A stretch of 64,000 nucleotides of DNA. Origin: a virus (taxonomy: Duplodnaviria; Caudoviricetes). Made by a program: the position numbers and the translations under genes. Positions 32,866 through 33,261 of the stretch are shown piece by piece. How positions within the stretch are numbered: the first letter of the stretch is position 1; the number at the start of each line of letters is the position of its first letter. Location: the IMG/VR virus record IMGVR_UViG_3300032321_002024, positions 160,001 through 224,000 of that record; one strand, given 5' to 3'. The notes under the pieces were generated by a model that worked only from the letters and a program-made list of their open reading frames with translations, was not told where the DNA came from and searched no databases.

Positions 32866-32937
32866 ATGAATAAATTAGCAACATATTATTACGAAGCCGA
32901 GGGTTTAAACCCAGTCGGACGAGTTTGTGTGTTGTAA
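32866..32937 (+). CDS. attenuator leader peptide 2 (23 aa)
   Basis: MNKLATYYYEAEGLNPVGRVCVL; YYY/E-E match downstream tRNA-Glu and tRNA-Tyr; GTCGGACGAGTTTG pairs with the terminator 5' arm. Confidence 0.8.
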   Translation: MNKLATYYYEAEGLNPVGRVCVL

Positions 32938-32956
32938 CGATTTGATTACTTTAAAC

Positions 32957-32988
32957 AAACCCAGTCCGATTTCGGTCTGGGTTTTTTT
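32957..32988 (+). terminator. attenuator terminator 2
   Basis: AAACCCAGtCCGA-TT-TCGGtCTGGGTTTTTTT. Confidence 0.8.
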
Positions 32989-33011
32989 ATTTAAAAAATA
33001 TTTTAAAAAGA

Positions 33012-33042
33012 TTTGGTAAATAAAAAAGTTTACTTATCTTTG
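33012..33042 (+). promoter_or_regulatory. Bacteroidota-type promoter
   Basis: TTTG-N19-TATCTTTG. Confidence 0.7.
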
Positions 33043-33097
33043 TAAAACAAAAGAGGTAAATATAAATCCAAGTAACCCCTTGGTTTTTTACTAACTT

Positions 33098-33169
33098 GGT
33101 CCCATCGTCTAACGGTTAGGACGTTAGGTTTTCATCCTAGAAATCGGAGTTCGATTCTCCGTGGGACTA
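33098..33169 (+). tRNA. tRNA-Glu(TTC)
   Basis: TTAGG-TTTTCAT-CCTAG; Glu-type D arm. Confidence 0.9.
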
Positions 33170-33180
33170 CAAAATTTATT

Positions 33181-33261
33181 GGAAGGTGGCAGAGTGGTTA
33201 AATGCGGCAGACTGTAAATCTGCTCTCTTACGAGTACGGGGGTTCGAATCCCTCCCTTCCA
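33181..33261 (+). tRNA. tRNA-Tyr(GTA)
   Basis: GCAGA-CTGTAAA-TCTGC; long variable arm. Confidence 0.92.

Follow-up and report, generated by a model that had tools for sequence, protein, structure and literature searches.

The virus record IMGVR_UViG_3300032321_002024 of IMG/VR (262.6 kb, 29.8% G+C; its whole genome is G000 in our numbering) has 25 transfer RNA (tRNA) genes detected by ARAGORN. All 25 are on the plus strand inside the window analyzed here, that is, the whole stretch of 64,000 nucleotides (nt) corresponding to bases 160001-224000 of the record; one insert-bearing tRNA is added by Rfam, and two Ser tRNAs by relaxed ARAGORN settings. The locus considered here, attenuator 2, is situated between an initiator-type tRNA-Met gene (tRNA-fMet) and the genes for tRNA-Glu and tRNA-Tyr. 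It comprises a short leader open reading frame (ORF) rich in Tyr and Glu codons, a predicted terminator with a competing antiterminator, and a host-type promoter behind the terminator. Its features, in coordinates of the window, are as follows.

32741-32755, plus strand: late-type promoter-like motif CTTTT..ATATATA, the presumed start of the transcript of tRNA-fMet and the leader
32774-32847, plus strand: initiator-type tRNA-Met(CAT), upstream of the switch (ARAGORN; Rfam, 60.9 bits)
32866-32937, plus strand: leader ORF of 23 codons and a stop, from ATG to TAA
32884-32901, plus strand: regulatory codons 7-12, TAT TAT TAC GAA GCC GAG (Tyr-Tyr-Tyr-Glu-Ala-Glu)
32878-32912, plus strand: segment 1, holding the regulatory codons, predicted to form a pre-emptor or pause hairpin with segment 2 when no ribosome is present
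32913-32928, plus strand: segment 2, the 5' arm of the antiterminator (fold and alignment)
32955-32971, plus strand: segment 3, the 3' arm of the antiterminator and the 5' arm of the terminator (fold and alignment)
32973-32988, plus strand: segment 4, the 3' arm of the terminator with a run of seven T (fold)
33012-33042, plus strand: promoter of the Bacteroidota sigma-A type, with -33 TTTG, a 19-nt spacer, and -7 TATCTTTG; predicted start at about 33047
33068-33089, plus strand: conserved hairpin of 16 nt with a T run behind it, both within the 5' leader of the transcript from the 33012 promoter
33098-33170, plus strand: tRNA-Glu(ttc) (ARAGORN, Rfam)
33180-33263, plus strand: tRNA-Tyr(gta) (ARAGORN, Rfam)

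Relatives were collected in two ways. Those retrieved without the leader sequence are L005 (436 kb, close) and L004 (152 kb), the only two relatives returned by protein searches of IMG/VR, and, by blastn, the closest public records, the uncultured huge phages LR756502.1 (642 kb; L001) and LR745206.1 (635 kb; L022). A pattern scan of metagenomes used the leader itself; the ten true relatives found in this way are not independent evidence for the Tyr/Glu run, and served solely for comparisons of structure and promoters. Three other matches of the scan (L010, L016, and L018) were false, being located inside unrelated protein genes. Seven lineages of attenuator 2 were compared for the switch geometry, namely the window, L005, L011, L004, L008, LR756502, and LR745206.

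Only 18 A-rich nt separate tRNA-fMet from the ATG of the leader, hence the leader must be co-transcribed with this tRNA. The leader ORF has no Shine-Dalgarno sequence; its upstream region is A-rich, with A at positions -3, -6, -12, and -13, positions reported as initiation determinants in Flavobacterium johnsoniae (PMC6847099). The frame is open in all seven lineages. Five of six consecutive codons encode Tyr or Glu, directly upstream of the genes for tRNA-Glu and tRNA-Tyr, and all these regulatory codons are decoded by the two downstream tRNAs, tRNA-Tyr(gta) and tRNA-Glu(ttc). Among 1430 small ORFs of the 262.6-kb genome (all six frames, ATG to stop, 15–45 codons), a six-codon window with at least five Tyr or Glu codons occurs in one.

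The same architecture of leader and terminator is seen upstream of every other plus-strand tRNA cluster in the window. The match between leaders and clusters was scored as the fraction of cognate codons minus its expectation, with all pairings permuted; the true pairing is the sole best one out of 120 in the window, out of 720 in LR756502, and out of 5040 in LR745206. Where clusters are split in the relatives, the leaders are split too: a cluster of Arg and Ser tRNAs comes after a Ser/Arg-rich leader, and one of Gln tRNAs only comes after a leader with a Gln run.

The order of tRNA-Met, leader, terminator, and then the Glu and Tyr tRNAs is the same in L005, L004, LR756502, and LR745206. The leaders of L005 and L004 retain a Thr-Tyr-Tyr-Tyr-Glu-(Ala/Val)-Glu core, while their other residues differ, and the Tyr/Glu run is also retained in L011 and L008. 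The leader peptides of LR756502 and LR745206 (30 and 28 residues, respectively) are strongly divergent; each has three Tyr and three Glu, dispersed over the sensing stretch.

Folding of the leader with RNAfold yields two stable structures. The antiterminator (32912-32972) has an energy of -19.0 kcal/mol (z -3.7; one of 200 shuffled sequences is as stable), and the terminator (32957-32984, followed by the seven-T run) has -17.1 kcal/mol when 32953-32990 is folded (z -5.1; none of 200 shuffles); the whole leader, 32866-32990, has -40.6 kcal/mol (z -5.5). The two hairpins share the arm 32955-32971 and hence are mutually exclusive. An earlier note on this DNA, made from the letters alone, had described a leader with YYYEAE ahead of tRNA-Glu and tRNA-Tyr and a pairing of 32914-32927; the leader is indeed read from the sequence at these positions, and the partner of 32914-32927 is 32956-32970, as that note stated.

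In an alignment of seven distinct variants, the 7-base-pair outer helix of the antiterminator is paired in 100% of cells, compared with at most 37% in slid controls. One pair of the antiterminator varies on both sides (A-U, G-U, or G-C), and one nucleotide of this pair covaries inside the terminator as well; the terminator is conserved and has covarying pairs. A scan for consensus terminators overlooked the terminator of attenuator 2 because of a T-T mismatch in its stem, and it was found by direct folding. An alternative antiterminator, in which a copy of the terminator 5' arm (32906-32918) would pair with the 3' arm, was rejected, as the copy is absent in L005, L004, and the two LR genomes. 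In Rfam, no family, T-box included, covers the attenuator 2 region, which gives only sub-threshold matches at the level of chance.

The position of the switch relative to a translating ribosome was modeled by folding the transcript up to the terminator loop, i.e., with the 3' arm not yet made, and masking the bases covered by the ribosome. In the window, an antiterminator of -17 kcal/mol or lower persists for all A-site positions through the last Glu codon (codon 12), or holds through codon 13 if a shorter ribosome footprint is assumed. Past the regulatory codons it drops to -9.8 kcal/mol and then toward zero, and it is gone with the ribosome at the stop codon, where the terminator alone remains in the masked fold. 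The collapse occurs one to three codons past the last Tyr or Glu in seven of seven lineages, although the run itself ends at codon 12, 13, 16, or 19-21, depending on the lineage. In this model, the boundary of the switch is placed where an attenuator requires it, a criterion that is independent of the codon content. The pre-emptor or pause hairpin of segments 1 and 2 appears in the full-length fold only as a prediction.

The host-type promoter that the earlier note had placed downstream of the terminator is present as well. The sigma-A consensus of Bacteroidota consists of -33 TTTG and -7 TAnnTTTG, with G at -5 (PMC6847099, PMC9723704). With boxes allowed at a distance of 19–21 nt (consensus from PMC6847099), the stretch 33012-33042 fits it with TTTG, a 19-nt spacer, no G at the variable positions, and G at -5. 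Both boxes are invariant, and at the same position, in L005 and L011; a promoter of this type is also found in L013, L014, L015, and L019, while L004, L009, and L008 have it as a second copy. The same promoter subtype is predicted to drive tRNAs directly at 60792 and 60878 of the window. Hence 33012-33042 is probably a real promoter, with a predicted start near 33047.

Genome-wide, the TTTG/TAnnTTTG pattern has 31 matches vs. 20.9 expected from a Markov control, a modest excess with a strong strand bias (25 matches on the plus and 6 on the minus strand). At eight genes the -7 box is located exactly 4 nt upstream of the ATG; if G is located at -5, as in Flavobacterium, this spacing would put the transcription start on the A of the ATG, which implies leaderless mRNAs for these genes. 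The 7-mers most enriched upstream of ORFs consist of A and T only and show no Shine-Dalgarno signal. Together with the TTTG/TAnnTTTG promoters, these 7-mers point to a host from Bacteroidota, for which such features of initiation and promoters have been described (PMC6847099).

In L014 (minus strand), an ORF of about 45 codons lies between the bypass promoter and tRNA-Glu, with its ATG 14 nt after the box; with this ORF inserted, the promoter there would drive a protein gene along with the tRNAs. The hairpin at 33068-33083 (a 5-base-pair stem with a 6-nt loop) has an exact copy after a host-type promoter in LR745206 (L022, 24486-24501), where it precedes the late motif and leader 3 and not tRNA-Glu; a copy with one mismatch is found in L008, and the hairpin is also seen in L015 and L019. 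We rejected it as a second terminator, as its fold has z 0.03 and the T run is not adjacent to it in LR745206 or L008; the conserved hairpin could be a processing, protein-binding, or nut-like site.

The motif upstream of tRNA-fMet belongs to another promoter class. Of 260 ORFs, 83 have its ATATATA core in the 60 nt before them, vs. 4.7 expected, and the distance to the ATG is bimodal (4–7 or 17–30 nt). It precedes the gene of the tail sheath, two tail fiber genes, and also leaders 1, 3, and 4; before tRNA-fMet, it is kept in L005, L004, LR745206, and LR756502. It is most simply explained as a phage late-type promoter. Among the host-type promoters, those sampled lie ahead of genes for a ligase-like protein and a peptidase. 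These classes are consistent with the scheme of the earlier note, in which unregulated early expression is followed by attenuated late expression; we infer the activity of the promoters, and their timing from the classes of genes that they precede.

Cores of this kind at 26314, 32741, 33285, and 37117 of the window are examples of a motif shared by about one third of the ORFs of the genome. At 18 genes ATATATA is located exactly 4 nt upstream of the ATG; the same 4-nt spacing of ATATATA and TAnnTTTG suggests that many mRNAs are leaderless and that the phage has its own variant of the -7 box, which a sigma-like factor of the phage may recognize.

The arrangement of promoters around the unit differs among the relatives. 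LR745206, L008, and LR756502 have a host-type promoter ahead of the leader or of a tRNA-Met-like gene (in LR745206, with a degenerate -33 box), and the tRNAs directly follow the terminator. L004 and L009 have the upstream promoter and a second copy immediately upstream of tRNA-Glu. Between the terminator and this second promoter (L004, 7130-6960, minus strand; also in L009) are a Tyr-like tRNA and a truncated older tRNA-Glu, a footprint left by a cassette of promoter and tRNA-Glu inserted over older tRNAs. In L008, a cassette of promoter, hairpin, and tRNA-Glu is located further downstream. The window, L014, L005, and L011 have lost both the upstream promoter and the older tRNAs, so that the terminator abuts the cassette. 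In these four, the neighboring codons of the leader change, while the Tyr/Glu run, segment 2, and both arms of the terminator are intact, which argues that the switch is still under selection.

The explanation that we consider likely is that a leader-peptide attenuator of the trp type gates the read-through of the tRNA-fMet transcript into tRNA-Glu and tRNA-Tyr, and that an independent host-type promoter serves the same two genes. The sequence features, predicted folds, codon statistics, conservation, and covariation are shown above, whereas translation of the leader and its response to charged tRNA are inferred. Transcription from the late-type motif at about 32741-32755 would make tRNA-fMet and enter the 23-codon leader. 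If Tyr-tRNA or Glu-tRNA is scarce, the ribosome would stall with its A site on codons 7-12, which would free segment 2 (32913-32928) to pair with segment 3 (32955-32971); no terminator would form, and the RNA polymerase would proceed into tRNA-Glu and tRNA-Tyr. If decoding is fast, the ribosome would reach the stop codon and cover segment 2, segments 3 and 4 would form the terminator, and the transcript would end at about 32988. Independently, the promoter at 33012-33042 would transcribe tRNA-Glu, tRNA-Tyr, and then leader 3, so that the switch would add demand-driven transcription to a promoter-driven supply, the latter being probably early.

By its position upstream of the leader, tRNA-fMet is ungated, as the earlier note had it; its other statement, that tRNA-Glu and tRNA-Tyr are gated, stands only in part, since in the source genome both are also reached by the promoter behind the terminator. 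The attenuator itself is supported by the codon match, the terminator, the exclusive antiterminator with its ribosome geometry, and conservation.

A tentative extension, possible but clearly more doubtful than the switch itself, is a two-tier supply: the early promoter would give a fixed dose of Glu and Tyr tRNAs, and the late attenuator would top it up only when decoding of Tyr or Glu codons slows. The unit would then act as a sensor of tRNA depletion caused, for example, by host anticodon nucleases cutting tRNA or by decay of host tRNA during infection, and, together with its sister units, as a closed-loop homeostat for most of the phage tRNAs.

Several observations weigh against the attenuator. 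Most of the tRNA-Glu and tRNA-Tyr could come from the promoter downstream of the terminator, in which case the switch would matter little in this genome. The antiterminator covariation comes from seven sequences with few independent changes, and its score is reached by 134 of 500 shuffles; hence it is a sign of consistency, not proof. The full transcript, folded at equilibrium, gives the terminator every time, even with ribosome masks; like that of the trp operon, the switch must therefore be kinetic. The truncated transcript of the window prefers the antiterminator when no ribosome is present, so the basal state may be leaky. Finally, a stall reports charged tRNA and cannot separate a shortage of tRNA from a shortage of the amino acid.

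In the main alternative, the hairpin is a mere terminator or insulator of the late tRNA-fMet unit, the leader is a relic in this genome, contributing little, and the Glu and Tyr tRNAs come essentially from 33012-33042 only. No other unit of the window has a promoter in the interval from terminator to tRNAs, the tRNAs of units 1, 3, 4, and 5 beginning 6–15 nt past the T run; the location of the promoter upstream of the leader in L008, LR745206, and LR756502, and the cassette inserted over older tRNAs in L004 and L009, fit this as well. We nevertheless consider it unlikely, because the lineages with the bypass promoter (the window, L014, L005, and L011) keep the run, segment 2, and the pairing of the terminator arms despite changes of amino acids, the geometry of the switch is preserved, and nothing between the terminator and the tRNAs would block read-through. 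The frame being open in all lineages might also mean that the ORF encodes a functional small peptide, or that Rho-dependent polarity or arrest by the nascent peptide operates here, instead of codon-specific stalling with alternative hairpins. This is very improbable. Between distant lineages, the peptides have in common only their Tyr/Glu content and those residues for which the RNA pairing segment codes; the locus has a conserved intrinsic terminator together with a conserved antiterminator that matches it; and the leaders of all other tRNA clusters differ in composition, each following its own tRNAs. Still less credence can be given to a short ORF located beside a tRNA terminator by chance. 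AT-rich genomes do abound in short ORFs, as the size of the chance set used here illustrates; however, the frequency of 1 in 1430, the pairing permutations of three genomes, and, across seven lineages, the conservation and the switch geometry all speak against coincidence, and the divergence of the LR756502 and LR745206 leaders opposes the notion that the relatives are recent copies of one sequence.

Leader-peptide attenuation is a textbook mechanism for amino-acid operons. As in trpL, hisL, pheL, leuL, and the multivalent thrL and ilvL, attenuator 2 combines a short leader ORF, in which regulatory codons are clustered, with four segments predicted to fold as pre-emptor, antiterminator, and intrinsic terminator, and a stall would free segment 2; as in thrL and ilvL, two amino acids would be sensed together. 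Unlike in these operons, the output is not biosynthetic enzymes but the very tRNAs decoding the regulatory codons, which closes the loop on the supply of tRNA; moreover, the unit is phage-encoded, follows a tRNA gene in one transcript, lacks a Shine-Dalgarno sequence, and has a bypass promoter. At the level of sequence, attenuator 2 appears to have the features expected of a leader-peptide attenuator, the pre-emptor hairpin being a prediction, except for the classical class of targets (biosynthesis or synthetase genes).

The nearest systems in logic are pheM-pheST and T-box elements. In the pheST operon of E. coli, the pheM leader controls phenylalanyl-tRNA synthetase by leader-peptide attenuation in response to charged tRNA; there too a component of the translation machinery is regulated, but the output is a synthetase protein, one amino acid is sensed, and the system is chromosomal. 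T-box riboswitches likewise sense the charging of tRNA through a choice between terminator and antiterminator and control translation-related genes, but they bind uncharged tRNA directly, without translation. Another operon headed by an initiator tRNA is metY-nusA-infB of E. coli, in which partial terminators come next; we know of no codon-matched leader peptide there, and, in contrast to attenuator 2, the downstream genes are protein-coding.

The initiator assignment is based on three G-C pairs beside the anticodon loop (a GGG/CCC stem) and an unpaired 1:72 mismatch. This tRNA-Met(CAT) is 94% identical to the E. coli tRNA-Met that has a median of 4 copies per genome, which we take to be the number of initiator genes (four initiator and two elongator genes in E. 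coli). The tRNA-Met of L005 and L011 has just two G-C pairs in the anticodon stem.

The promoter at 33012-33042 shares the boxes and the spacer of Bacteroidota sigma-A promoters and differs from them in being phage-borne. Amino-acid operons of Flavobacterium have been inferred to be under leader-peptide attenuation (PMC9723704), so a switch of this kind is plausible with the machinery of the host. Full-text searches of the literature turned up no account of leader-peptide attenuation acting on tRNA genes. A look at Prevotella phage Lak-B1 around its tRNA-Met, brief rather than thorough, revealed widely spaced tRNAs and no obvious leader-terminator units.

If attenuator 2 functions as proposed, phages would regulate sets of tRNAs by the decoding speed of exactly the codons that these tRNAs serve. 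This would account for the dosing of dozens of tRNAs by large phages, would tie phage tRNAs to codon demand or to the tRNA-cleaving defenses of the host, and would provide a compact, portable sensor of decoding capacity. Specific to attenuator 2 would be the joining of a tRNA and a leader mRNA in one transcript and the sensing of two amino acids together; its conserved bypass promoter would illustrate the coupling of such a module to unregulated expression, and its rearrangement in evolution by means of promoter-plus-tRNA cassettes.

Other observations concern the rest of the tRNA region. Attenuator 3 (33317-33397 and 33422-33452) has Ile ATA, Ala, and Gly codons followed by a terminator with the ACCCAGTC core of attenuator 2; it starts 54 nt past tRNA-Tyr, so transcripts from the 33012 promoter would enter a second switch. 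A tRNA-like sequence after tRNA-Gly, at 33614-33690, is missed by ARAGORN and Rfam in the window. Its counterpart in LR756502 (L001, about 4470-4546) shows compensatory changes in the acceptor stem, and its homolog in L005 (9455-9531) is tRNA-Ala(tgc) according to ARAGORN; a tRNA-Ala-like sequence at this place would explain the Ala codons of leader 3. In LR756502, the array of Gly and Ala tRNAs is interrupted by an ORF of about 200 codons (L001, 3580-4205), possibly a homing endonuclease. For attenuator 4 (37217-37312), the histidine operon leader of Rfam is matched below threshold (28.7 bits vs. 49, E 0.25). The insert-bearing tRNA at 26902-27030 (Rfam, 45 bits) has an insert of about 57 nt and is assigned to Ile(tat) by ARAGORN with introns allowed. 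A GOLLD RNA is found at 61501-61894 (Rfam, 281.7 bits, threshold 150), between the tRNA-Met genes at 60946 and 62192; near it are three host-type promoters (60642, 60792, and 60878) and tRNA-like genes, none of them with a leader or terminator.

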